Source of the DNA: a virus
Reading direction: 5' to 3' (one strand)
IMG/VR virus record: IMGVR_UViG_3300023274_000046
Length of the DNA stretch: 64,000 nt
Positions 1 through 63,341 of this stretch are shown here, one piece after another; within the stretch, counting starts at the first letter, position 1, and each line of letters opens with the position of its first letter. Under the pieces are notes generated by a model, which was not told the origin of the DNA, did no database searches, and was given only the letters and a program-made list of their open reading frames with translations. Made by a program: the position numbers and the translations under genes.

Positions 1-1265
1 ATATGATAAATTTACACTCATTAGTGTGTGTTGAACTTCTACCAATGTTCATGTACCTGATACAATAAGAAAAAATTCAAAAAAGATATTTAAAGGAGCT
101 TTTTTATTTTTCTCGTTAACCCTGGGCAGCCAAGCGGTTAAATAAGAGGTGTTAATAAGTAATACCCTATTAATTCAGGTCTTATTAAAAGTTAATTGAT
201 TAATGAATATATTTTTTTTGGACTATATCTTCTCGAGGTAAATACCCCGAGGACTACGTATAGTCTCTGAGGATCCCCACTAAATTATTTGGTAATATTG
301 TGGGTTTCCTGCTGATGGTTAAAAATCAGACTTTATCACTGAGATTTAGCCTGCGCCAATCTCGAGTAGAATAATTGTAATAACTTCCCAGCATATAGTA
401 GTCTTTTTATTTCTCTACTTCCAGATTATTAAGATACGAGATAAAAAATATATCTACTGCACGCTTCGTAGCACAGAGTTAAAAATAATTACCATCCACC
501 CAACCCATCATAATTAGATTTTTGGTTATTATTTCTCATTAACGACAGAAAGGGTCGTCGGCTTATATAAAAAGTTTCTCTACCAGTTAAAAGCATAGGT
601 TCAACATATTCTAAAATTAAAAGAGAGAAGTTTGAATGATCGTATTTAAGTAAGGCTCTGGTAATAGGCATATTAAAATTTTGTTTGCTTTTTAAAAAAG
701 CCTTATTAAGATAATTTCTCATTCTAGAAGCTAAATTAATATAACTTACTACGTAAACATGTCCATTTACCTTGTTTATTAAACAGTAAACACCTGATTT
801 ATCTCTTTGTTCTTTTAGTATATTAACTCTATCTTCCTTAAAACTATCATAAACTTTTACAACCTTTAAATCTTGGATATTATCTTGGTTATAAGACTGC
901 TTATCACCAAAATTAGAATAAGATCGAGTTATGATAGCGTTTCCTAGCGGCACTCTAGTAAATTGGCTATACCGAGAATTCAGAATTAATTAATTTTTTC
1001 TTACTTGGACTATCTCTTCCCGGAGTAAAAATCGGGGACTGCGTATAGTCTCTGAGGATCCCGCTATATTTTTATTAAATATAATTAGGTTTCCTGCTGA
1101 TGGTTCAAAATTAGGCTTTATAACTGAGATTAAATAAAACTCTAGTAGCATAATTGTCAGAAGTTCTCAGCATATAGTAGTCAAATCTAAGAATCCATCT
1201 TCCACCCTTTTTATAAGGGTGGAAGATGGACGTAAATAGAGGGAGAGCTATCAGGTTGTTATTTA
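1..1265 (-). mobile_element. Group I intron cox1-1057 (partial), with two core copies
   Basis: Core motifs ccatcagcaggaaac / tcctcagagactatacg / gaaga(g/t)atagtcc occur at ~1005-1110 and again at ~215-325. Confidence 0.85.
489..953 (-). pseudogene. Truncated GIY-YIG homing endonuclease
   Basis: SGVYCLINKVNGHVYV...RMRNY...ALLKY...ILEY...RETFY; similarity is lost right after ETFYIS. Confidence 0.8.
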
Positions 1266-22567
<21,302 letters not shown>

Positions 22568-33712: not shown

Positions 33713-35493
33713 CTAGAGTCCGAATCTTTCTAACATATAAGATTCGGACGATGTAACACGAGAGTTTATTCACCTAACATTAGATTTTCTCTTTTTGGGA
33801 CTAAAAAAATTGCTTAATGTTCGTATTGCTTTAGAACTATAATTTCTTATGGTTAGTTCTGTTCCTCGCAAATTCTCGCGATATAGCCAGGAATTCTCCC
33901 TTCCTATCAATCTAAAATCTTGAACAATGAAGTCATCACTTCATGTACCAATATATAAACGAGAGATTGTTAAGCCCGCATACTTACTATTAAAGAGCTT
34001 TATTCAGGGTTTCGAATATCTTCATCTCTTTAGATAACCTCCTTTTATTAACTCTATTCTCTTACTATCTGTTAGAAGCTCTATATGAATCATATTTAAT
34101 AACTCATCTCTTAAACTAGAAGAAATGACTAGATTAGCCCCTTTCCTTGTTTCAGAATAAATCTTATCCTCAAACGGGTCATAAACTATACCCAGTCACT
34201 TTAATTTTGAGATTCACTTAGAGTCCCTTTTTATTCATAAGGTTTTGGTTTCAGATAACTCCATACGCTTTTCTTTATCACCTCTTATTTCAAAGGGGAC
34301 ATCACTATAAAATATAGGATCATCGGCATAGGATATACTAGATTGTTGAGTTAAAAAATCCTTAAGATTTAGTATAGACTGTACTGGGGACATTGGGAAA
34401 CCTTGGGGTAACCCTTCATCGTATCCCCAATTTAAAGGGGTCTCTTCTGGAGATATATTCTTTGAAGAACGGGGAGGGTTGAGATAAATCTCCTCAATCA
34501 TGAGGGCACTGGAGTCACATTATCCTGAACAGGGTTATACTGCAGACCTAAAAAACGCAGTTTGGATATAACCTTCGGATCCTTCCTTCCTTCAGGAAGC
34601 ACCAAACTTTTTATATTACCACCTTCTACCGGGAGGGAAAAGAAATAGAAAAGGTCCAGATATTCTAAACGTTTTAATATAAGTTCAGTATCGGAAACTA
34701 ATTTAACCTCTCGGGGAATTATAAAATTACTACGATTGATCTTTCCTATTCAAGATAACATATATTCACTTACTCCCATGGAAGATAGCACACCTGCCAC
34801 TTCCGCCGGTCTAACCGAAGGGAAAAATTGTTTTAGATCTGTTTCTAATATTCAAGGTTTATCAAAAACTTTAGTAATTAGCTCTTGTCATGCAGTTAAA
34901 CATCCGCGGCCTGGTATAAAACCATGTTGACTTGGTAAAAAATTCTCTCAGCTAAATTGGACTAGGAAATTATTTATCATATGCCCCATCATACGTCAGG
35001 GTACAGAAGGTACACCTAACGGACGCCATTTGTTTCTATCTCAGAAATATACCCGCTTAAAGTCTATACAGTGAACTATCCTATTTAATTCACTATCTGT
35101 ATCGAATGATTTAAGCAATTTTTTAAAAGATTTCACTAGAGACTTAACCTGTCCTAGTGTGAGGTCTCTAGATCAGTTAGGGTGCATTTTAATGAAAGCG
35201 CTTAATCTAAAGACTAAGGATTTTTGAAGTAAAGATCTTACTACATTTCAGTACTTCACAGGGTCTGATCTCAAACGATCCAGACGTTTCAATTGATATT
35301 TCATATATTTATTCATTTTAGTATTTTCACCCCGCGTGATCCTTTTTCAAGAGACCCTCACTTTTAGTCCATAAAGATCCTTCCACAGCTTGTCATAAGG
35401 ATTTGTAAACAACTCCATTTGATCGCAATTAGGTATTCCAGTCCAACCATATAGGTTGGGTTTTATCCTCTCCTGCGGAGCTCCGCAGGAGCT
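33713..35493 (-). pseudogene. Retroplasmid-like (Mauriceville/Varkud-type) reverse transcriptase with one frameshift near 34500
   Basis: WRPLGVP, QHGFIPGRG, ETDLKQFFPSV, GLPQGFPMSP, SYADD, LKWLGIVYD, SRLYIGTW...QDF. Confidence 0.85.
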
Positions 35494-36663: not shown

Positions 36664-37884
36664 CGGTATTTTTTTTAATAAATAGCTTTTAACTTAATAA
36701 TACAACTATTAAGTATTTATATATTTTTATACTTAAATTTCTAGATATATTTCTATAATAATACTCTATAATAAATATTACAGTTAGAAAGACTTTTTTA
36801 TTTGAGTTTGATGATGGCTCTGATTGAACGCTATGCAAATGCTTGACACATGCTAATCGTACGTCAATATTTAACCCATGAGGGTTCGATATATTGAAGT
36901 GGTGTACAGGTGAGTAATTGGTATTTTAGCTACCTAAGAGTAAGGCAAAATAAATCCCTTATAAGAACAATGTTTATGGTTATTAATTAAGACTAAATCT
37001 AATAAATCATACCCAGCCCAGGGCTACTATATTGTAAGATTAGATGGAAAATTAAAATAAGAACCATAAAGTATGTTTGTAAAAGAAAGAGAATTTCGCT
37101 CTTAGTTGATTATTAATAACCACCGGATAAGTATTAAGTATGGTAATATCATATTTAGCTTATGTCCGTAACCAAGACTGAGAGGTCTATTGGTCACACT
37201 GGGTCTGAAAAAACCCCAGTGCGTATAGTACAGCAGTGAGGGATTTTGGTCAATGGCCTAACGGCTGAACCAGCAACTTGCAGGAACGAGAGTTAATATA
37301 AATGAGTTATTAACTTGCTTGACTAGGTCTTATAAAGTTCTGGAAAAAGCTGATAATGACAACTTTAAATCCAGAGGTCTCGACAAAATCTTGTGCCAGC
37401 AGTCGCGGTAAGACAAGGGAGACAAGTGTTATTCATCTTAAACAGGTATATTGGGTACCTAGACGGTGTAAAAAGGCTGAAATAAGTACCTATTGCACTT
37501 GAGTTTGATATGTGAGAGGAAGATGTCAGAATTGTTGGAGTTTAGGGATGAAATCCATTGATACTAATAGGACTGATAATGGCGAAGGCAAACCTCTATG
37601 TACAGGCATTTACTTAAGAAAATAAGAACAAAAGACAACGACATAAACATTGAAAAAGTATTAAAAAGTTCTTAAGTATAGAGCTAAACTGACGTTGAGG
37701 GACGAAGGCTTAGAGAGTGAAGAGGATTAGATACCCCCGTAGCCTAGGCAGACAATGATGAGTGCCATAGGTTGGCTTATGGCTGAACTATAAATGAAAG
37801 TGGAAGCACTCCACCTCAAGAGTAATGTGGCAACGCAGGAACTGAAATCATTAGACCGTTTCTGAAACCAGTAGTGAAGTATGT

Positions 37885-40109
37885 GTTCGACGTGAGGCGG
37901 ATAATAACAATGTGGTTCGAATCCACTAAATCAGTTCTCGATTTAACACTATTTGCAGATGCATAGTTAGTAATAATATGTATTAAGTTGCAAAGACAAT
38001 GTAGCCTGTTAAATGTAATATTCATTTAAAGGAGCTAGTGTGACGTGAGATATGGGTAGCGAAAGCAAAGGCAACAATGACGTTTCGATACACTACAACT
38101 ATAAGGGTAGGAGAGGGTTTGACATACTAACCCTTTCAGAGAACCAATATAACCCTTCGGAGTAAAGTTGTCACCCTAAGTCTTACTAGGAAGTGTTATT
38201 ATTTGAACACGGTAAGCCCTTATCTAACCTAATCTTTTGTACGTTTACAATAGGAAGGAGGTGTCTTACGATAAAAAGTAGGCATAGCAAGGTGAGAGGT
38301 AAAGGAGAAGTTAAAAAGCGAATGCCAATGGTCGTAACTTCGATTGAAGTAAGTTTACGGTATTGGATAGAGTCATATTAAATAAAATTATTAAAAAAAC
38401 AGTTAGTTTTTAAGGCCCTTTTTGTACCCTCCATATGGTATTATTTAGGATACTGACCTTTAGTTAGGATACTGACCTTTAGTTAGGCTTTAATGGTAAT
38501 TCAGGGGCGGCTTTTCATGAAAGCAAGTATATGTAAGGTGCCAGCACCTCCTTATTTTTATACTCTTAAGGATACATTTTATGCAATACTAAGAGGTTGG
38601 AATCATTGGAAATTTTTCCCTATTGTGATATGCGATAGTCAAATCAGGATTGTGCCAACTAAGATTTTAATAAGGGTGGTTGAGTCACAAGTTCAGCCGA
38701 GTATCCTTAGTTATGCATTTAAATATATCTAAGGACCTTATCTTGTATAGTTGTTCGGCTACAATCCGAAAGGCGTTGTTGAGAAAGAAAAGCTCTCAAG
38801 CTGCAAGACCCGCTAATACTCAAAAGTTCTAAAAATTTTGATGGAACTATCAAGTTACCACATTGTGTGATTCTTTTCAGTGATTCATTTATATATAATA
38901 CAGAAGAAGCTACAACAATAATGATGATAAACAAATTAATTAAAACTAATAACTTAGTTATACATAATAACCGAATATATTCTAGAATGATTCAGACTTA
39001 TTTTAAACTTGTTTTAAATCCATGATACATTACCGGAATTGTGGACGGAGAGGGAAGTTTTGGAGTTTTTGTTAAAAAAGACCCCAAACGTTCGCTAGGT
39101 TACCTTATAACTTTAAGTTTTGAAATTGCTTTAGATAAAAAGGATTTAAATCTTTTAGAAGGATTGCAAGCTTATTTCGGAGTAGGGGGGATATATAAAC
39201 ATTCTGGCGATATGATGCGATATAAAGTAAGTTCTATTCAAAATATAGCAAAAGTTATTATACCACATTTTGATAAGTATCAATTGGTAACTCAAAAAAG
39301 AGTGGATTTTGATATATTCAAGCGTATAGTGTGTATTATAGCCAAAGGACCTGTTTCTAGAGAAGATTTGCAAGAAATTGTAAATTTAAAATCTTCTATG
39401 AATTTAGGTTTATCAGATTCATTAAAAGAATCTTTTCCGAATACTAAAGAGTTAGCTAGACCTCTAGTAAAGTATAATGGTATTCCAGATCCAAATTGAT
39501 TAACTGGATTTTCTGAGGCTGAAGCATGTTATTACATTAGTATTTACGATTCACCTCAATCAAAATTAGGAAAGGCAGTTCAATTGGTATACGTAGTAAC
39601 TCAGCATATTCGTGATGAGGAGTTACTGAAGGGGTTGATAGATTACTTTGGAGGATGTGGAAAATACAGTAAAAGAAAAGATGGTGGGGATTTTAAAGTA
39701 CTTTCTATTAAGGATATAACCACTAAAATAGTACCATTTTTTGATGCGTATCCTTTACAAGGGGTAAAATCTTTAAATTTTAGAGATTGAAAACTAGCAG
39801 TTGAAATAATGGAGAATAAAGGTCATTTGACTGAAGAGGGGTTAAAGAAAATACAAACTATAAAGATGAGGATGAATACAAAAAGATTTAGTTAGAAAAA
39901 AGACAAAAAGACTACTTAAATTTATTTAATATATAACTCGCACCGAAAGGTGGCTGACTTAACATGCGGTGGAATTAGCACATATTAGTGTTGCGGCGAT
40001 GGCTGCTGGGATATTATATATCCTTAGATTCTGCTTGAGCGTAGTGCGATGAAAGTTGCACGCTACGTTCTTAGAGGGGGAAAATCCGAGAGGATCTACC
40101 TATCTCAAC
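37885..40109 (+). mobile_element. Group II intron at mS952 with LAGLIDADG ORF (38921-39895)
   Basis: Starts GTTCGAC; domain V gagcgtagtgcgatgaaagttgcacgctacgttc; ends CTCAAC; ITGIVDGEG and LTGFSEAEA motifs. Confidence 0.9.
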
Positions 40110-40490
40110 TATTTAATTCGATGATCCGCGAATAACCTTACCACAATTTGAATGCTCTAAATTATTATATAGTTAATAGATGGTTAATATATATGTTTAG
40201 GTGTTACAGTATATAACCAATATATAATATACAGCTTTTAACCAATATGTAATATATATTGTTTAGGTGTTACAGTATATAACCAATATATAATAACCAT
40301 ACCTTTTTATTATATTGTTTAGACCACATGCGTTGCATGGCTGTCTTCAGTTAATGTCGTGAGATTTGGTTAGGTCCATTAAATTAACGTAAACCCTTGT
40401 TTTATTTTATTAAATAAGGCAGCTCACCGCTTACAATTGGATTGATAATAGGGACTAAGACAAGTCATCATGGCCTTAATATTGTGGGCT

Positions 40491-41843
40491 GATATGTGTT
40501 TTGGGAATACACTAAATTGGCTAAAACTATCAAACTCCGGGGACACCCTAAAACTTATGAAACCAAGCATTATTCAAAAGGATATTTGCGGCTGAACTAA
40601 TTATTCAGGTACGGTAATATATCATAAGATGAGTGAAAACGAAATGGGTTATCGCGGATCTAAATCAGATGTTAGTTTAATATCTGTAAAAGAGCAACGA
40701 GTAGACGGTAGTTGACCTCTTTTTATAAAAGCCAATCCAAAAAATATAAAAAGAAGTTTAAGGTGTACTCTAATGGGCTTTGAAAGAAGTTGCCGAAATT
40801 TCGGTCTATTTTCTAATATTATTGAAAGTAGTCAGATCAAAATCCCTACTAAGGTATTATTAAGTAAAAATTATTCTACCTTATCTATCCTAGACCCTTG
40901 ATTCTTAACAGGGTTTTCAGATGCTGAAGGTTCTTTTATAATTTCTATTTATAAAGATAATAACAGTAAATTAAAATGAAGAATTTCGGCTTATTTCTCT
41001 ATCCATATCCATAGTAAAGATGTTTCATTATTGGAGATGATACATAATACTTTTGGAGTAGGAGTTCTTCGTAAAAATAATGAGAACACTGTATTATTTA
41101 GAGTTAGTGACATACAAGAACTGCAAGTGATTATAGATCATTTTAAAAAATACCCTTTAGTTAGTGCTAAGTATTCTGATTTTTTATTATTTGAACAATG
41201 TTATAATATCATAAAAAAAAAAAGAACATTTAACTCAAAATGGGTTTAAAAGAATTATAGAATTACGTGCTTCACTAAATAAAGGTTTATCCCCTGAATT
41301 AAAAGAAGCTTTCCCTAACAACAATCCAGTTGTTAGAACAGAATATGAATTTAAAGGTATACCAGATCCTAATTGAATTTCCGGGTTTGCTACTGGAGAT
41401 TCTTCATTTAGAGTTTCTATTGAAAAAAGTTCAAGTAAAATAGGTAAAAGAGTAAGATTGTGTTTTGATACTTGTTTACACATTAGAGAGAAAGAACTTT
41501 TAAAAGGGATAGCTAATTATTTTAGTTCATATGATTCTAATCTTACTAAAGAAATGTCAATTCAATGTTCTGAAAAAAATAATACTTGTTTATTGCAATT
41601 TAGGAATAATTCAGACATAGAAAATAAAATTATACCTTTTTTTAAAGAATATTCTATAAAAGGTGTGAAAGCATTAGACTTTAATGATTGATGCAAAGTC
41701 GCTGAATTAGTAAAGAATAAAGAACATTTAACTATAGATGGTTTAAATAAAATCACAGAAATTGCAAATGGTATTAACTTAAATAGAAAATGATAAAGTT
41801 TAAGAATTTTTTTATAATTACTAGGTTAAATTTGATTTCCATG
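40491..41843 (+). mobile_element. Group I intron ~mS1224 (IC2-like) with frameshifted LAGLIDADG (~40860-41795)
   Basis: Junction gggct|atagacgtg; FLTGFSDAEG motif; frameshift at the poly-A run near 41220. Confidence 0.85.
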
Positions 41844-41864
41844 ATAGACGTGCCACATAAGCCT

Positions 41865-43273
41865 ACCTTTTGGCTTAGGACGCTAAGAAGGTGGGTGAAA
41901 CTATCAAACTCCGGGGAACTCCTAAAGATTCTGATACCAAACCACGTGCTAAAGTACGTAGGCGGATGAATTAATCACTCATGTACGGTAATAAGTCAGA
42001 ATATAATCGAAAGAGCAATGGGCAATCGCGGATCTAAGTCAATAACAGTTTTACAATCACCTACAACATACAAAACTGTTATTGTAAAAGAGCAACGAGT
42101 AGACGGTAGTTGACGTAGTAATTCTTTATTACGTTTAAGGTGTATTCTAATAAGTTTCGAGAGAAATCGAGTAGTCAATGTCCTTTCTAAGGGGCAAATT
42201 ATATTAAAACGCTGTTTTACAACCGGTATATCTAATATACCCTCATCCTTACCTACTTCTGTAGAATCTCGCGCCATTAATCCTTGATTTGTTACGGGAT
42301 TCACGGACGCGGAGGGATGTTTTATTATCCAAGTAAGAAAAAGAGGTAATTACTGATCTTGCGAGGCTAGATTTGTTATTGCTTTACATGAAAAAGATAG
42401 AATGCTACTTGAACAAATTCAAAGATATTTTGGAGGGGAAGGTAGTATTTTAAAACATGGGAAAGATAGTTGTCAATATGTAGTAGGTTCTTTAGAACAA
42501 ATCACTAAAGAAATTCTTCCTCATTTTGATAATTATCCTTTAATATCTAAGAAGTGTGCGGATTACCTTTTATTCAAAGAGGCTGTAAATATAATGTTTG
42601 CTAATAAGCAAGCCTCCTTGGATATTACAAGAGAAGAATTTATAGCAAAGATTGTAGCAATAAGAGCATCTTTAAATTTAGGTTTATCACCCGAATTGAA
42701 ATCTAGTTTCCCTAATGTAATTGCCGTGCCTCGTCCAAACGTTGAAGATATTACGATACGTGATCCTCATTGAGTAGCAGGGTTTACATCAGGTGAAGGT
42801 TGTTTTTTAATTAAGACAAGCGTAACCAAAATGACTAAGGTAGGGCACAGTGTTCAATTACTATTTCAAATAACTCAACATGAGCGTGATGAGCTATTGA
42901 TGGAAAGTCTAGTAACTTATTTTGGATGCGGTGTGTTAGTAAAGGATTCTAAAAATAATGGTACTAGAGTGTATTACCGTGTAACTAAATTTTCAGATAT
43001 TCGTGATATTATCATACCGTTATTCCAAAAATACAGCATATTAGGAGTAAAAGTTCACGATTTCGAGGATTGATGTAAAGTATGTAATATCTTAGTAACA
43101 AAGGGGCATCTAACTAAAGAAGGGTTGGATAATATATTAAAAATAAAAGCAGGAACTAATAAAGGTAGACACGAATAATACTATTATCCGTATCGAGCTG
43201 GAAAAGGATTTGTTTTTTTTACACGGGTGTAATAATGTGAATATAGTGGACCTATGATAAAATTGGCGAATTG
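41865..43273 (+). mobile_element. Group I intron ~mS1247 with LAGLIDADG ORF (~42180-43180)
   Basis: Junction ataagcct|agacaaaagg; FVTGFTDAEG and VAGFTSGEG motifs. Confidence 0.85.
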
Positions 43274-43555
43274 AGACAAAAGGATGCAATAATGCGAATT
43301 GGAGCTAATCCCCAAAATAGGATAAAGTATGGATTGTAGTCTGAAATTCGACTGCATGAAAAAGGAATTACTAGTAATCGTGAGTAATCACATCACGGTG
43401 AATTTTATCTCAGATAGGTACTAACCACTCGTCAGGCGCTGAAAGGAGTATGTGCAATAAGTTTGGTTACTGCTGTTTGTTATTCTAAAGTTAGAGGTTT
43501 AGATCTTTTGGCAGAGGATCTTCGTATGCGTGACTCTGATTGGTGTTAAGTCGAA

Positions 43556-44050
43556 AACCAAAAAGAAATTGAGACCTTCTTTTTATTTTTCTAAAAATAC
43601 CAAACTCCGGGAATACCCTAAAGCAGTTTATGCCAAATCTACATATGAAACAATTAAAGTAGATGGCCTTTCGTAATGGATAAGGGTATGGCAATAAGGT
43701 AACTGATTAGTCGAAAGATTGAATGGGCTACCGCGGATCTAAGTTGACTCTATTCTCACTATAGGATATAATCTCAAGTATGATTATGTATAGTAGATAG
43801 ATCATAAAAGAGCAACGAGCAGATGGTGTTTGTAGGTCCACTGGTTACTTATAGTGTAACCGAAAACGGAAATAATTAGTTTTTACCAAATAAATTAGTA
43901 TTGACTTTATTTCCGAAGTCTAGGTTCTGAATAGTTCCAAGGTGGAATATTAAGGTATGCTCTAAATAAAGTAAAAATACTTTGATTTACTTCGTCTCAG
44001 ACCTAAATACAAGGTAAATACTTTGTACATGGTCGAAGAAGTATTAACTG
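43556..44050 (+). mobile_element. ORF-less group I intron (IC2-like) just before rns helix 45
   Basis: Core caaactccgggaatacccta / accgcggatctaag / aaagagcaacgagcagatgg / aaggtatgctcta; removal restores aagtcgaaatacggttcg. Confidence 0.75.
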
Positions 44051-44052
44051 AT

Positions 44053-44115
44053 ACGGTTCGGGTTGGGGAACTAGCCCGGGAATAATAAAAATAAACGATA
44101 CACCCAAAAAAAAAA
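44053..44115 (+). repeat. 63-bp direct repeat, copy 1 (rns 3' end)
   Basis: acggttcgggttggggaactagcccgggaataataaaaataaacgatacacccaaaaaaaaaa is identical at 45783-45845. Confidence 0.95.
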
Positions 44116-44726
44116 TAAACCAAAAATTAAAAAAAATGCAAAAAAAAAGCCGGTGCAAGGAGCATAAATATTTCATATATTTATATGGTTCGAATCCATA
44201 AACAGGATAATGGGTAGTTTAAAGATATTATTTTACAATAATAATAATTTAGGATTGTTTGAATTTAAGGTTTATATCTTGGCTTATGATATTTATATTT
44301 TAGGTGTGCGCCGTGTAGAGGCATTGTTGTCGAGGCAAATAATTGCTTATCATTACTCGAACATGATAGTAGCAACAGAGTTAGGTCGAAGGGAAAGCCT
44401 GGAACTGAACATAGCATCTCTGTTAAAGCGGTCACAGTCAATAACCCGAATAATTGATAATAGGATTCGCGAGCTATACACTCTATGGTTAAAGTTATAC
44501 TATTTGAAGTGAATTGTCCATTGGCCTCAAATATAGGGCACTCTCATTACGGGTAAGGGAGAGTTCAGACGGAAAGATGGATGAACCTAAGCCATTTTTC
44601 TCGAGTCGATCTGACAAGATACGCAATAAGCGCATTGAAGGACGAGAAATCGCAACCTAAGGAGTGAAGACGGACAACAAATCGCAACCACGGGATTGCC
44701 GATAGATTGATTATGAAGAGCCAAGG

Positions 44727-45734
44727 TTGCATGTGAATAGCCAAGGTTACATGCGAAGAGTCAAATCAGAGGGCTTATTAAGGATCGACCCGTCTCTCGT
44801 AGGACTTTTTTTTTTCACCGCTACGCGCTACGCGCTACGCGCTACGCCTCTTTCGACCAATATAACAACACGAATCTTACTCCTACACCTGTTTACACTA
44901 CATCAGCCAATCTCGTTCTACATACCAGCATTTTGTTCCGCTAACCTTACCATTCATCTTGCACCATACCTATTTCGAACTTCAATACCCTGTCCAGCCA
45001 TGTCTTCTGTAAAATACACACACAAATACACCAACCAAAGCGTTACCGGTTCTCCTCTGATGGATGGTCGACCTCTTGTCATCCCTCGAGCGGATTCACC
45101 ATTTGGCGAAGACTTTACCTATTCAATTGAAAATCAGATTCTTGACTCATTGGAGGAGGAAACAGGTAAAGTGTTATTGAAGACCCTTTCACCGAAAACG
45201 GTTGTCGGGTATCCAGCCAACGAAATAAACCCGTGCGTCAGGGGGGATCACAACTCTCCTATCATTAAAAAAGAAGATGAGTGCATACCGTTGATTTCAT
45301 CTCGGCCACATTCACCTTCACAAACTACCCAACCGGAAAAATCGACTCCCACCAAAAGAACATCACCTCTAAAAAGATCAGGTCGTATTGCTAAAAGACG
45401 GTCCCCTACCACGACTAAGAGTTCTCTTATCAAATGGTATAGCGAGGAAGGGTATTTTCAAGTCGGATCGCGAAGAATTTCTAAAGATAAGGCTACCGAA
45501 TTTATCCTACGGGGAATCGAGGATGATAGAAGGGAAAAATTGAAAAAGAAGATTTCAGAAGCGAAGGAATTATTTACTATGGTTAAACGAGAATGTATAA
45601 AGGTTTTTCAAGAAGACGTCGATGATCTGGGGGTTAATTGGTACGATGATAAGGATATTCACCAAGAGTTGTTCGATGCAGGTATAACGATTACGCCGTA
45701 TATGCGTAATATTATATTCTATATAAAACAGTAG
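44727..45734 (+). CDS. Hypothetical protein of apparently foreign origin (335 aa; alternative start at Met 45000)
   Basis: Open in the standard code, Trp encoded by TGG, visibly GC-richer than the flanks, Ser/Pro/Thr- and basic-rich. Confidence 0.6.
   Translation: MHVNSQGYMRRVKSEGLLRIDPSLVGLFFFTATRYALRATPLSTNITTRILLLHLFTLHQPISFYIPAFCSANLTIHLAPYLFRTSIPCPAMSSVKYTHKYTNQSVTGSPLMDGRPLVIPRADSPFGEDFTYSIENQILDSLEEETGKVLLKTLSPKTVVGYPANEINPCVRGDHNSPIIKKEDECIPLISSRPHSPSQTTQPEKSTPTKRTSPLKRSGRIAKRRSPTTTKSSLIKWYSEEGYFQVGSRRISKDKATEFILRGIEDDRREKLKKKISEAKELFTMVKRECIKVFQEDVDDLGVNWYDDKDIHQELFDAGITITPYMRNIIFYIKQ
44820..44847. repeat. (GCTACGC)4 tandem repeat
   Basis: Read directly. Confidence 0.9.
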
Positions 45735-45782
45735 TATATCAGCCATTCGACCTTCCTTATCTATAAAACGTTTCTTTTTCTA

Positions 45783-45845
45783 ACGGTTCGGGTTGGGGAA
45801 CTAGCCCGGGAATAATAAAAATAAACGATACACCCAAAAAAAAAA
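45783..45845 (+). repeat. 63-bp direct repeat, copy 2 (duplicated rns 3' end)
   Basis: Identical to 44053-44115. Confidence 0.95.
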
Positions 45846-46046: not shown

Positions 46047-47360
46047 ATGCCATACAACTCATTAATATTATTAATTTTATCTAATTCAATTACATCAAGA
46101 CGAGACAAATCAATCCTGTTCACAGCAACAGTTATATTTATAATTATCCTTTCAGTATTTATAGCCTATAATAATTTACATATTTTATTTTTAGTATTAT
46201 CTTTGGAAAATGGGTTAGGATTAACCCATATTGCTGCTACAATGAACTCGTTCCCTGTTAGGGATTTAAACACATTATTAACTTTACTTCTAAAAAGGGT
46301 TATAGTTGCTGTAAGGCAAGGGTACGATAAGGGTAATGGGATAAGCTATTCATTAAAAGTTAAAGCAAAATCTGATGAAAAGATCTCTACTATATTATCA
46401 AGTATGCCTTCAACATTCAACTATAACACTAAAAGAAAGTTTAATACTTTATCTAAAGTAAACTCTATTAAAAAATTAGACCCCTTCTTTATTACAGGTT
46501 TAGCGGATGCAGAGTCTAGTTTTATGATATTTATTCGTAAAAATACTAAGATTAAAGTTGGTTGAGTAGTGGAGGCTAGATTTGCAATTAGTTTTCATAA
46601 AAAAGACTTACCACTTTTAGAGTTAATTCAGTATACTTTTGACGGAGTGGGTTCTATAGTACGTCATTCAAAAGATAGTTATAGTTTATGCGTTAGCTCT
46701 CCAAAGGATTTAATTCATACTATTATCCCACATTTTGACAAGTACCCTTTAATTACAAAAAAAAGATCTGATTATGAGCTATTTAAACGTGTAGTAGAAC
46801 TTATGAACCAGAAAGCCCATTTAACCGTTGAGGGTTTACAACAAATTATAAGTATTAAAGCTGTTCTAAATAAAGGTTTATCAGATGAATTAAACCTTTC
46901 ATTTCCTGACGTTAAATTTACTACACGTCCTCTATTTCCAGTGAGTAAAATACAAAATAGTAACTGAGTATCCGGATTTGTCGAAGGTGAAGGTAACTTT
47001 ATGATTATGCTTAAAAAAAATCCATCTCATAAATCTGGTATACAGGTTGCATTGAGATTTAAAGTGACTCAACATAACCGTGACGTTGAGTTTATTAAAA
47101 GTTTTGTAGATTTTTTTGGTTGTGGTAATTGCTATATTGGTGGAGATTGCGTAGATTTCGTTGTTACAAAGTTTTCTGATATTACTGATATAATCTTACC
47201 CTTTTTTAGTAAATACCCTTTACATGGCTGTAAAAGATTAGATTTTCTTGATTTCTTACGAGTTGTTGAGATTATGCAAAGTAAAGCTCATATAACTGGG
47301 GAGGGACTAGAACTAATTCGTACAATAAAATCCGGAATGAACAGAGGAAGATGTGTTTAA
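46047..47360 (+). CDS. Free-standing LAGLIDADG endonuclease with a Nad2-like N-terminus (437 aa)
   Basis: LSNSITSRRDKSILF...AYNNLHILFL, then ITGLADAES and VSGFVEGEG; continuous across TGA. Confidence 0.85.
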
Positions 47361-47404: not shown

Positions 47405-47489
47405 AGGAGAGTTCCTTCATCGGTAAGAAGGGTTGAGCTGTAAACTCAATAGTAATATACTTTTAAGAGTTCGAATCTCTTGTCTCCTA
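47405..47489 (+). tRNA. trnY: tRNA-Tyr(GTA)
   Basis: Anticodon arm ttgag ctgtaaa ctcaa; long variable arm. Confidence 0.92.
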
Positions 47490-61351: not shown

Positions 61352-61619
61352 TCCATACTATTTAGATACTTTTCCAATTCATGAGGAGAAGCAAGCTAGG
61401 TAAAAAAAAAACCAAAAAAAAACCCCAAAAAATTTTGTTGTTGGCTCAAGGCGAGGGATAGCCAAGGAAAGAGGCGAATTCGTGAATACTATGAGTGAGT
61501 GTGCTGAATCTTGAAATCGACCGGTCGGGATATTATTCTAATGAGGTATTTAATAAGCTAGCTCTCGCACTTTCTCTACCAAACGTGATCAGGGCATAAT
61601 TCCATCAATCAAACTTATT

Positions 61620-62590
61620 CTAAAGCTGGACTAGGCAGTCCCATCTTCGGTGCGGACAGTCTACTATATTAAATCACCATACATCTAGTCTAATTCCTGG
61701 TAATTTTGCTAACAGAACCCAAGTTATCTTAGCTTTCCGTCCTTCTAAGGAATATAAGGAGGGATCATGAATCTGCTCTTTATAGGTATATACTTTCGCA
61801 TCTGCTTCTAAAGTTCTTATCTCCATATCCTTCTCTCCCTGTCGTTGTTTCGTTCCGTCCCCTAATACCTTGATCTTTTCTAATTCTAGAGGGTCAAAGA
61901 TGGGGGATGTATTGATCAGGTTTCGTATATAATTACCAAACGGCGGATATATGGAATTTCTTTTAAATCATTCCAGTATACTGTTACTAGAAATCAGATT
62001 GAAACAGGCTTTCAAATCAAATTCGTATAGTGACTTCCCAGCCTTAACCTTCGATATGATTATCTTCCAAGCATCTTCATAGCTTCGTCTAGGACGAAAC
62101 CCAGTCTGATAGTCTCCTATGAGTGGTTCGATAACCAAATATAGTATATCATTTATCATCTTTAGTATGATTCTTCATTCCCGATTGGGCACTCCTAAGG
62201 GACGGATTCCCGTACTTTCTTCTCAGGTCGCGCCGGTAGGTTTCGGAATATATATGCGATTGAATATGGCGTTATGGTCTAGACTCCGGCGTATCCTATC
62301 TACCCCTTTCAGTAAATTATACACTTGGGGTTGGTCTCAGGTGACGTATCAGTTATGATAAGCTCTGGAGAAACTATATAGTACGTAACATTGTGATCGC
62401 TGGAAAAGTACCAATCATAATTTTATGGCTTTATTGTATTCTTTCCTCTCTATCATTCTCAATAGCCGTCCTCGTTGTTTATGCAAATATCTATTACAGC
62501 CAGGAATCCTAATTATGGACCTTTTATCGTAGTTCGGAATTAATGGTAGTCTTCAATTACTTGAGATTTTCCACTCCTTTGACTCGAAAA
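61620..62590 (-). pseudogene. N-terminal half of a second retroplasmid-like reverse transcriptase
   Basis: RIYIPK, IRPLGVP, QTGFRPRRS, YEFDLKACFN; open for ~320 codons in code 4; later motifs degenerate. Confidence 0.8.
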
Positions 62591-63341
62591 AAAAACCAAA
62601 AAAAACCCCAAAAAAAAACCAAGCGGCTATAGGATGGAATCAAAAAAAAGATATTTAGGTTGAGGCAGTTAACAAGGTTTATATTTATTATTAAGTTAGA
62701 TAAAGTAAAGAAGTTAGGCTGATTTTAAAATCTTAATTTATTATTATGTTTGATGAAAAGTAATAAGTTAGGCAGATTATAAGAAAATTTTAATTTATAC
62801 ACTTAGAATTATTGATAATATTGTAGCAATCTAGATAGATATGTTGCTGAACGATTTTAGAATGTAGTATTATTTTGAAATAAATACTTTTAATTACAAT
62901 GATTTGTTTAACAAAAATTTCATTTATTATGATGTTGAAAAGATATATGGATCCATATACAATTAAGTTTTTAGTTAAAATTTGTATGAATTTGGAGAAG
63001 ACTGGAATGGGCCCCAGTTGAAAGGTTAAACGTAGATGAATTAAAGTAGATCTTGGATAATGTTGTTAGGATGTGTTGAGTTTATAAGTCTGATTAAGGA
63101 GAAGTGTTAAATGTATTTATAGTCTCTCTAATATCCTAAGGTAATGTGATAGACCGCGATTTGTCGATAGTTTAATAAACAAGTAGCAAATAAGACGAGT
63201 ATAGCAACCGGGTAAAACTGTAGTCTGACCGAAAGAGGCAGAGTAGAAGTCAAAAGGGGGTTTGCTATGGAACCCTCAGGACCGCCACCACGCCCGTGAA
63301 GTCGGGGGCATATCTTTCCAAAAATTCTTACTAGAGACGAG

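Follow-up and report, generated by a model that had tools for sequence, protein, structure and literature searches.

Mobile open reading frames (mORFs) that carry with them a duplicated 3′/C-terminal portion of their host gene have been described for atp6 of Allomyces macrogynus and for atp6, atp9, cox2 and nad3 of Glomus (Beaudet et al. 2013, PMC3630166). In the mitochondrial genomes of Pleosporales, the spacer between rns and trnY/nad6 has been found to contain non-conserved ORFs and repeats, as in Stemphylium lycopersici, Didymella pinodes and Parastagonospora nodorum (PMC5626475). The locus considered here lies in a spacer of the latter kind and resembles the former systems in that the 3′ end of a gene, in this case rns, is present twice with other DNA in between. 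Judged from its sequence, the locus looks like a scar-like mosaic and not like a single integrated foreign element. The reading that we favour, and to which we would give about an even chance, is that it arose as a by-product of the repair of an endonuclease-induced break, in a mORF-like manner, within a hypervariable spacer; the mechanism and geometry set out below would follow from the arrangement of the pieces.

The window, by which we mean the whole stretch of 64,000 nucleotides that was analysed, is fungal mitochondrial DNA and was read with genetic code 4; the features described below lie on its plus strand unless stated otherwise. Its gene order is trnR-trnR-rns-...-trnY-trnN-nad6-trnV-trnK, and the synteny trnR-trnR-rns-[variable ORF]-trnY-nad6-trnV-trnK is the order reported for Stemphylium lycopersici and other Pleosporales (PMC5626475). 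The mitogenome is best described as Pleosporales-type, with an rns–trnY spacer that appears hypervariable: this spacer measures 3,290 nt in the window vs 128–1,404 nt in relatives, and collinearity with the relatives returns only at ~47385, ahead of trnY (47405–47489). The expanded spacer also holds a free-standing double-motif LAGLIDADG gene (46047–47360; Pfam LAGLIDADG_1), which lies 200 nt 3′ of the second repeat copy and encodes a protein of 437 aa that is 39% identical to an endonuclease of the related species L023, discussed below. The 7.3-kb rns (36794–44111) consists mostly of introns, one of them a group II intron that carries a LAGLIDADG ORF, and its blocks relative to the intron-less L022 are 36794–37884, 40110–40177, 40311–40490, 43276–43556 and 44051–44111. 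Two reverse transcriptase (RT) relics are found elsewhere in the window, one at 33716–35493 with (GGCGCAC)6 at one border, and one on the minus strand at 61623–62654 (RVT_1, E 5.6e-11) with (AAAAAAAAACC)n arrays on both sides (61403–61432 and 62587–62622); these arrays could be the telomere-like repeats of linear retroplasmids. The fungal mitochondrial contig L040 (Ga0247755_1000011; 87,227 nt) is filed in IMG/VR as a viral genome (UViG), a status that looks like a misclassification.

A perfect 63-bp direct repeat of rns helix 45 plus trailer had been reported in the initial annotation, and this was confirmed: 44053–44115 and 45783–45845 are identical over 63 nt at a spacing of 1730 nt, and the similarity extends at 93% over 74 nt. 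The repeat is made up of the helix-45 hairpin (CGGGTTGG-GGAA-CTAGCCCG) plus trailer, and in the intron-less relative L032, where SSU rRNA is matched over its full length (model positions 1–1533), the 31-mer that spans helix 45 closes the match at its 3′ terminus. Scanning metagenome contigs with this 31-mer yielded 22 loci. In the window itself the Rfam SSU alignment of rns stops at 43556 (...TTAAGTCGAAA), which is the 3′ end of the penultimate exon (43276–43556; 92–96% collinear with intron-less relatives), and helix 45 is lost from the alignment thereafter. In ~14 intron-less relatives the exon junction is unbroken and reads ...AAGTCGAAA|TACGGTTCGGG. The terminal exon of the window starts at 44051/44052, and the repeat, starting at 44053, begins 1–2 nt inside this mini-exon. 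Copy 1 (44053–44115) abuts the 3′ splice site of the preceding intron and agrees with the consensus of the relatives; it comprises helix 45, the rRNA 3′ tail to ~44093, the trailer and the start of an A-run. Copy 2 (45783–45845) is without the first 1–2 nt of the exon and without the native downstream element: the junction of the relatives is AAGTCGAAA|TACGG, and copy 2 begins with ACGG, 1–2 nt into the exon and adjoining the intron insertion site. When a duplication beyond the A-run was sought, for example a second tRNA-like element after copy 2, local alignment gave scores no better than those of shuffles. Copy 1 is most simply read as the working end of rns, that is, as its functional terminal exon, and copy 2 as a pseudo terminal exon, a non-functional duplicate of this mini-exon and its trailer.

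The DNA enclosed by the two copies had been taken for one foreign segment of ~1.7 kb. It is GC-richer than its surroundings, as had been noted, with a GC content of 0.41–0.46 at 44350–45400 vs ~0.30 in the flanks. However, it does not hold together as one segment, since the 1.67 kb consist of ~105 nt of native sequence, a group II intron remnant of ~400 nt, filler and an ORF block. The native part is 44117–44221, which contains a tRNA-like element found directly after rns in about a dozen related Pleosporales-type mitogenomes. In these relatives, the trailer (ACACCC plus A-run) is followed without a gap by the tRNA-like element with its TATGG-TTCGAAT-CCATA arm; in the window, the corresponding minihelix of acceptor-like stem and T-arm occupies 44149–44207. 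The acceptor-like stem (GTCTGT/ACAGGC) covaries among the ~12 relatives in which the minihelix lies directly 3′ of the rns trailer, and is degenerate in the window species. Neither ARAGORN nor Rfam made a call on this minihelix, which may be a signal for the 3′ processing of rns. The minihelix was seen directly after the rns trailer in L021, L022, L026, L029, L031, L032, L036 and L037, and as a tandem double in L031.

The next part, 44306–44700, represents the 5′ portion of a group II intron without an ORF; it begins with GTGCG (or with GTGTG at 44304) and is truncated in the window haplotype. A second haplotype, L007, continues past window position 44700 into domain V/VI (L007 3810–3979), which is matched by RF00029 at 63.1 bits vs a gathering score of 40 bits; both the GUGYG 5′ end and domains V/VI of a group II intron are thus present, with V/VI deleted in the window and directly continuous in L007. 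Given the domain V/VI of L007 and the GTGCG at 44306, the whole would be an ORF-less group II intron of 630–740 nt, of which the window keeps the 5′ 395 nt and whose capacity to splice is putative. In L007 the complete ORF-less intron (3242–3979, corresponding to the window from 44306 onward) is situated in an intergenic spacer and not in a gene. The stretch 44290–44700 had been considered as a candidate RNase P RNA (rnpB), which was rejected after the group II intron had been identified. Between the intron remnant and the ORF block lies haplotype-specific filler (44701–44891), which differs in length among haplotypes and contains tandem repeats, namely a 20-nt unit present 2.5 times (44714–44764), a T10 run and (CGCTACG)4 at 44819–44847; the last of these and the (GGCGCAC)6 beside the first RT relic are alike in kind only and have no sequence in common. 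No similarity to 44222–45782 was detected in any relative, and a search for DNA paralogues of the segment in the rest of the window and in 19 related loci recovered only the repeat, the tRNA-like element and domain V. Within the enclosed DNA, only 44892–45782 would accordingly seem to be of unknown origin.

This block of 891 nt comprises a G-poor, pyrimidine-rich leader (44892–44999), an ORF of 244 aa (45000–45734) and a 48-nt tail. The frame is open from stop to stop over 342 codons (44706–45734), of which 335 remain when it is begun at TTG 44727 and 244 when it is begun at ATG 45000. The initial annotation described a 335-aa ORF that is free of TGA; such a frame exists, with TGG twice and TGA not at all, but only the 244-aa part from ATG 45000 is common to all haplotypes, because the frame upstream crosses the haplotype-specific filler and is not conserved. 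The codon evidence for use of the standard code is weak: the other ORFs of the window have 178 TGA vs 58 TGG, and hence the occurrence of two TGG and no TGA has a probability of only ~0.06. With a GC content of 0.42 and a GC3 of 0.39, the block matches the group II RT gene and the two RT relics of the window, so its composition is not unique. The frame is open over 280 of the 297 codons of the block, a degree of openness reached by none of 3000 Markov shuffles, whether read with code 4 or with code 1. An RNY-like bias marks the codon positions; the ORF was once a genuine coding sequence. Between it and its counterpart in L007 there are no synonymous and six nonsynonymous differences, and L007 has a 5-nt deletion; between it and that of L001 there are two synonymous and five nonsynonymous differences, and L001 has a 1-nt insertion. 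Overall this amounts to ~7 nonsynonymous to 2 synonymous substitutions, with independent frameshifts in two sister haplotypes; the 5-nt deletion, which causes the frameshift of L007 and is carried by L007/L039, recurs in an independent sample. On account of these neutral-looking substitutions and the two independent frameshifts, the ORF is considered to be neutral, decaying and no longer under selection.

Searches for homologues of the ORF gave none in Pfam, PHROGs, PDB sequences or ESM Atlas features, and only its own cluster was recovered from a word-indexed set of 5.8 billion clusters and from an exhaustive HMMER search of 1.84 billion representatives. In IMG/VR the match was to the same mitochondrial contig and to nothing else, and the block is missing from every related mitogenome retrieved. 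The product had been said to have an S/P/T-rich region, an NLS-like patch and a helical C-terminus, and it does: both the S/P/T-rich region and the basic patch KRTSPLKRSGRIAKRRSP can be recognised, and single-sequence AlphaFold2 prediction (mean pLDDT 49) gave ~140 disordered residues at the N-terminus and one long helix at 162–210. As regards the earlier proposal that DNA of nuclear, viral or plasmid origin was imported here, what stands is that the ORF block is odd in composition, compatible with the standard code and an orphan, whilst the native and intron-derived parts enclosed with it do not fit such an import. A non-mitochondrial or plasmid source is possible for the ORF block itself. 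That the block is an outside gene (nuclear, or from an unknown plasmid or virus) captured at an endonuclease break at the rns intron site would agree with its standard-code compatibility, its G-poor, pyrimidine-rich leader and a disordered product with a basic patch, but we regard such a capture as unlikely.

The arrangement is not peculiar to one assembly. The same linkage was found in >10 independent metagenome assemblies (JGI, ENA and Logan; many leaf-litter and soil samples), where the contigs share LAGLIDADG-bearing rns introns upstream and the 437-aa LAGLIDADG gene downstream. An assembly chimera had been named in the initial annotation as one finding that would overturn it, and can be set aside, since the ORF and both repeat copies are linked alike in the JGI, ENA and Logan assemblies of many independent samples. 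No contig of the species lacks the segment, and at least three structural alleles of 44700–44892 exist within this one species: L007 (identical to L020 and L039) agrees with the window up to 44700 and then has 1,215 nt vs the 191 nt of the window, and L001 has 97 nt at the filler site, consisting of L007-type sequence with a deletion at a microhomology. An RNA contig from run X17 hints at a fourth filler allele. Metatranscriptome contigs from four studies cover 44336–45845 at a depth of 2–6, with the intron uncovered, and one of them has L001-type SNPs; the RNA runs were chosen for holding this very stretch and DNA carry-over is possible, so this coverage does not demonstrate transcription. 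Neither empty-site nor circle junctions were encountered in 22 + 22 short-read contigs, which counts as weak negative evidence only and not as evidence of absence; the same applies to the lack of RNA coverage outside the stretch named.

The terminal exon is preceded by an ORF-less intron of 495 nt (43557–44051, with a boundary ambiguous by 1 nt), which ~14 related loci lack and which L023 and L027 share at 90–95% identity. It has two blocks of 23–28 nt in common with the upstream LAGLIDADG-bearing intron, and Rfam gave neither a group I nor a group II match to it. It is probably a group I intron, since it lacks both a GUGYG start and a domain V and shares the two blocks with its LAGLIDADG-containing neighbour. 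Among the loci retrieved, duplications of the rns end occur in two of the three lineages that have this intron vs none of the ~14 that do not. The species L023 and L027 and that of the window may form one clade, in which case the link between intron and duplication may rest on one or two events.

A parallel to the window is provided by L023, a related species in which the same intron is 94.7% identical. Its order is the rns terminal exon plus trailer (copy 1), an insert of ~1.9 kb, copy 2 and the native tRNA-like element, and the insert contains an intact, free-standing double-motif LAGLIDADG ORF (~1304–2650). Copy 2 of L023 starts at the first base of helix 45, 4 nt further in than that of the window, and has one substitution. 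The start of copy 2 is therefore 1–2 nt inside the terminal exon in the window and about 5–6 nt inside it in L023, in both cases adjoining the intron insertion site, where the endonuclease would cut. By its layout L023 is a textbook mORF on an rRNA gene, and this arrangement suggests that the intron and the external endonuclease gene move together; the mORF-like layout lies at oriented 683–2725 (reverse strand as stored), with the ORF-less intron just upstream. L027, the sister of L023, has kept a truncated endonuclease gene and lost copy 2. The 3′ flank of the ORF in the window was compared with that of the L023 endonuclease gene, and homology between the two was not significant.

The boundaries of the pieces, their native and intron-derived content, the recurrence of the duplication in L023 around a LAGLIDADG gene that is intact, and the ORF's neutral decay are the observations to be accounted for. 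According to the break-repair reading, a homing endonuclease would have cut both strands where the intron inserts, immediately 5′ of helix 45, and this break would have been repaired aberrantly. One-ended copying from an intron-containing template would have brought in the exon, the trailer, the tRNA-like element, the group II intron and the ORF block, the last three of which would already have been located downstream of rns in that template, and the copied product would then have been joined non-homologously to the broken right-hand end of the resident molecule, which would have started at about exon position +3. Should the G at 44050 be the last base of the intron, a copy 2 that begins at exon position +3 would coincide with the top-strand start expected for a LAGLIDADG cut that has the insertion site at its centre. 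Identity between the repeats would end in the A-run because the spacer haplotypes of all relatives diverge there. Against break repair, the endonuclease gene between the copies is missing in the window, and the native tRNA-like element follows copy 1, unlike the situation in a classical mORF and in L023; the model hence requires that the haplotypes of donor and recipient were different 3′ of the A-run. It also leaves the source of the ORF block unexplained.

The alternative that follows from the initial annotation is a plasmid-like or foreign circle of ~1.7 kb that matched the rns end over 63 bp, entered there by a single crossover and can loop out through the identical repeats, which the annotation compared to att sites. 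The repeats are indeed perfect and direct, the ORF block is GC-richer and an orphan, and the window contains two RT relics of similar GC content; the window has a single further perfect array of a GC-rich heptamer, and this lies at the border of one of the relics. In Cochliobolus heterostrophus, a circular plasmid of 1.9 kb with homology to mtDNA has reportedly been found. Plasmid integration into fungal mtDNA is, moreover, well known (PMC3630166), but relatives have the initial ~105 nt of the enclosed DNA as native sequence, so that the circle would have to be derived from mtDNA, and a mitochondrial group II intron lies within the segment. The segment encodes neither a recombinase nor a replicase nor an RT, and the earlier remark that no integrase is visible was upheld, with no integrase or recombinase ORF or domain in 44116–45782. 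Excision by recombination between the repeats does not restore the site as had been proposed: it would delete the conserved tRNA-like element without recreating the arrangement of the relatives, and every contig of the species, across at least three structural haplotypes, has the segment, with no empty site or circle junction among the 22 + 22 contigs (a weak negative). The likeness to att sites is accurate as to the location at the rns terminus, but is weakened by a copy 2 that starts 1–2 nt from the intron insertion site and by the duplication around a LAGLIDADG gene in L023. We consider the integrated circle unlikely.

Two further origins can be weighed against break repair. Hybrid-cDNA integration is known from the retroplasmids of Neurospora, and an RT of a group II intron or retroplasmid might likewise have copied the processed 3′-exon RNA and switched template to the ORF RNA, with the hybrid cDNA recombining into the spacer. 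The window has RT genes and RT relics, and the ends of the duplicated unit are near RNA landmarks, namely the 3′ splice site and the A-run before the tRNA-like processing element. The junction, however, is CTA|ACGG and not the exact exon start (TACGG or ATACGG), leaving the RNA 5′ end 1–2 nt off; the similarity stops short of the tRNA-like element; no RT lies within or beside the segment; and an endonuclease gene accounts for the parallel in L023 without recourse to RT, all of which makes an RNA-mediated origin quite unlikely. The orphan ORF might also be a present or former homing nuclease of a novel type that arrived as a classical mORF with its own rns terminus and left the resident terminus behind as copy 2. 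Duplication of the 3′ end is a hallmark of mORFs (PMC3630166), and the ORF occupies the same place as the LAGLIDADG gene of L023, with 48 nt from its stop codon to copy 2 vs 27 nt in L023. Yet Pfam, PHROGs, PDB and the Atlas yielded no nuclease domain, the 140 N-terminal residues are predicted to be disordered, and the ORF is frameshifted in two haplotypes; furthermore, the two copies are identical and not divided into foreign and native, and the native downstream element comes after copy 1. We hold it to be very improbable that the ORF is such a nuclease, and retain aberrant repair of an endonuclease break as the preferred origin.

If break repair is the correct reading, 3′-end duplication linked to homing endonucleases, which has been documented mainly for mitochondrial protein genes, would also affect the terminal mini-exon of an rRNA gene, and the resulting repeats could bracket unrelated cargo (here native spacer, a group II intron and an orphan gene) and so mimic an att-flanked island. 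For the annotation of mitogenomes this calls for some caution: the second rns end is to be taken as a pseudo-copy and the ORF of 244–335 aa as a decaying relic, and one contig with the island is listed in IMG/VR as a virus. The source of the orphan gene is the only part of the locus with possible wider interest; were an outside gene captured here, the junction 45782|45783 would record a homing break that trapped foreign DNA in fungal mtDNA.

Compared with described systems, the locus lacks the marks of an att-flanked element, in that there is no integrase or recombinase, the enclosed 44117–44221 is present in relatives and an empty site was not seen in the contigs of the species. With the plasmid-derived insertions of mtDNA (dpo, rpo and RT relics, the last of which occur elsewhere in the window) it shares GC-richness, decay and the absence of selection; it differs from them in having neither a polymerase or RT nor terminal inverted repeats, and no plasmid homologue was found. 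An RVT domain, as expected of a retroplasmid insertion, is likewise absent from the segment. The Pleosporales spacer ORFs (PMC5626475) have the same synteny and mark the same hot spot for species-specific ORFs and repeats, but that report has neither a duplication of the rns terminus nor a group II remnant, and the ORF described here has no detectable similarity to deposited proteins. The closest likeness is to the mORFs: an insert has a copy of the host gene's 3′ end on either side, the proximal copy is joined to the gene and the distal one is dead, and the event would be linked to the target of a homing endonuclease. This likeness is fullest in L023, where the whole architecture is found together with an intact LAGLIDADG gene. 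The differences are that the host here is an rRNA gene and not a protein gene; that in the window no endonuclease ORF lies between the copies, the ORF there having no Pfam, PHROG or PDB match; and that the native sequence follows the proximal copy, whereas in mORFs and in L023 it follows the distal one, the two copies in the window being identical. By analogy with these systems, the locus may be classed as a variant of the mORF or homing-break 3′-end duplication, situated in a spacer already known for its non-conserved ORFs.
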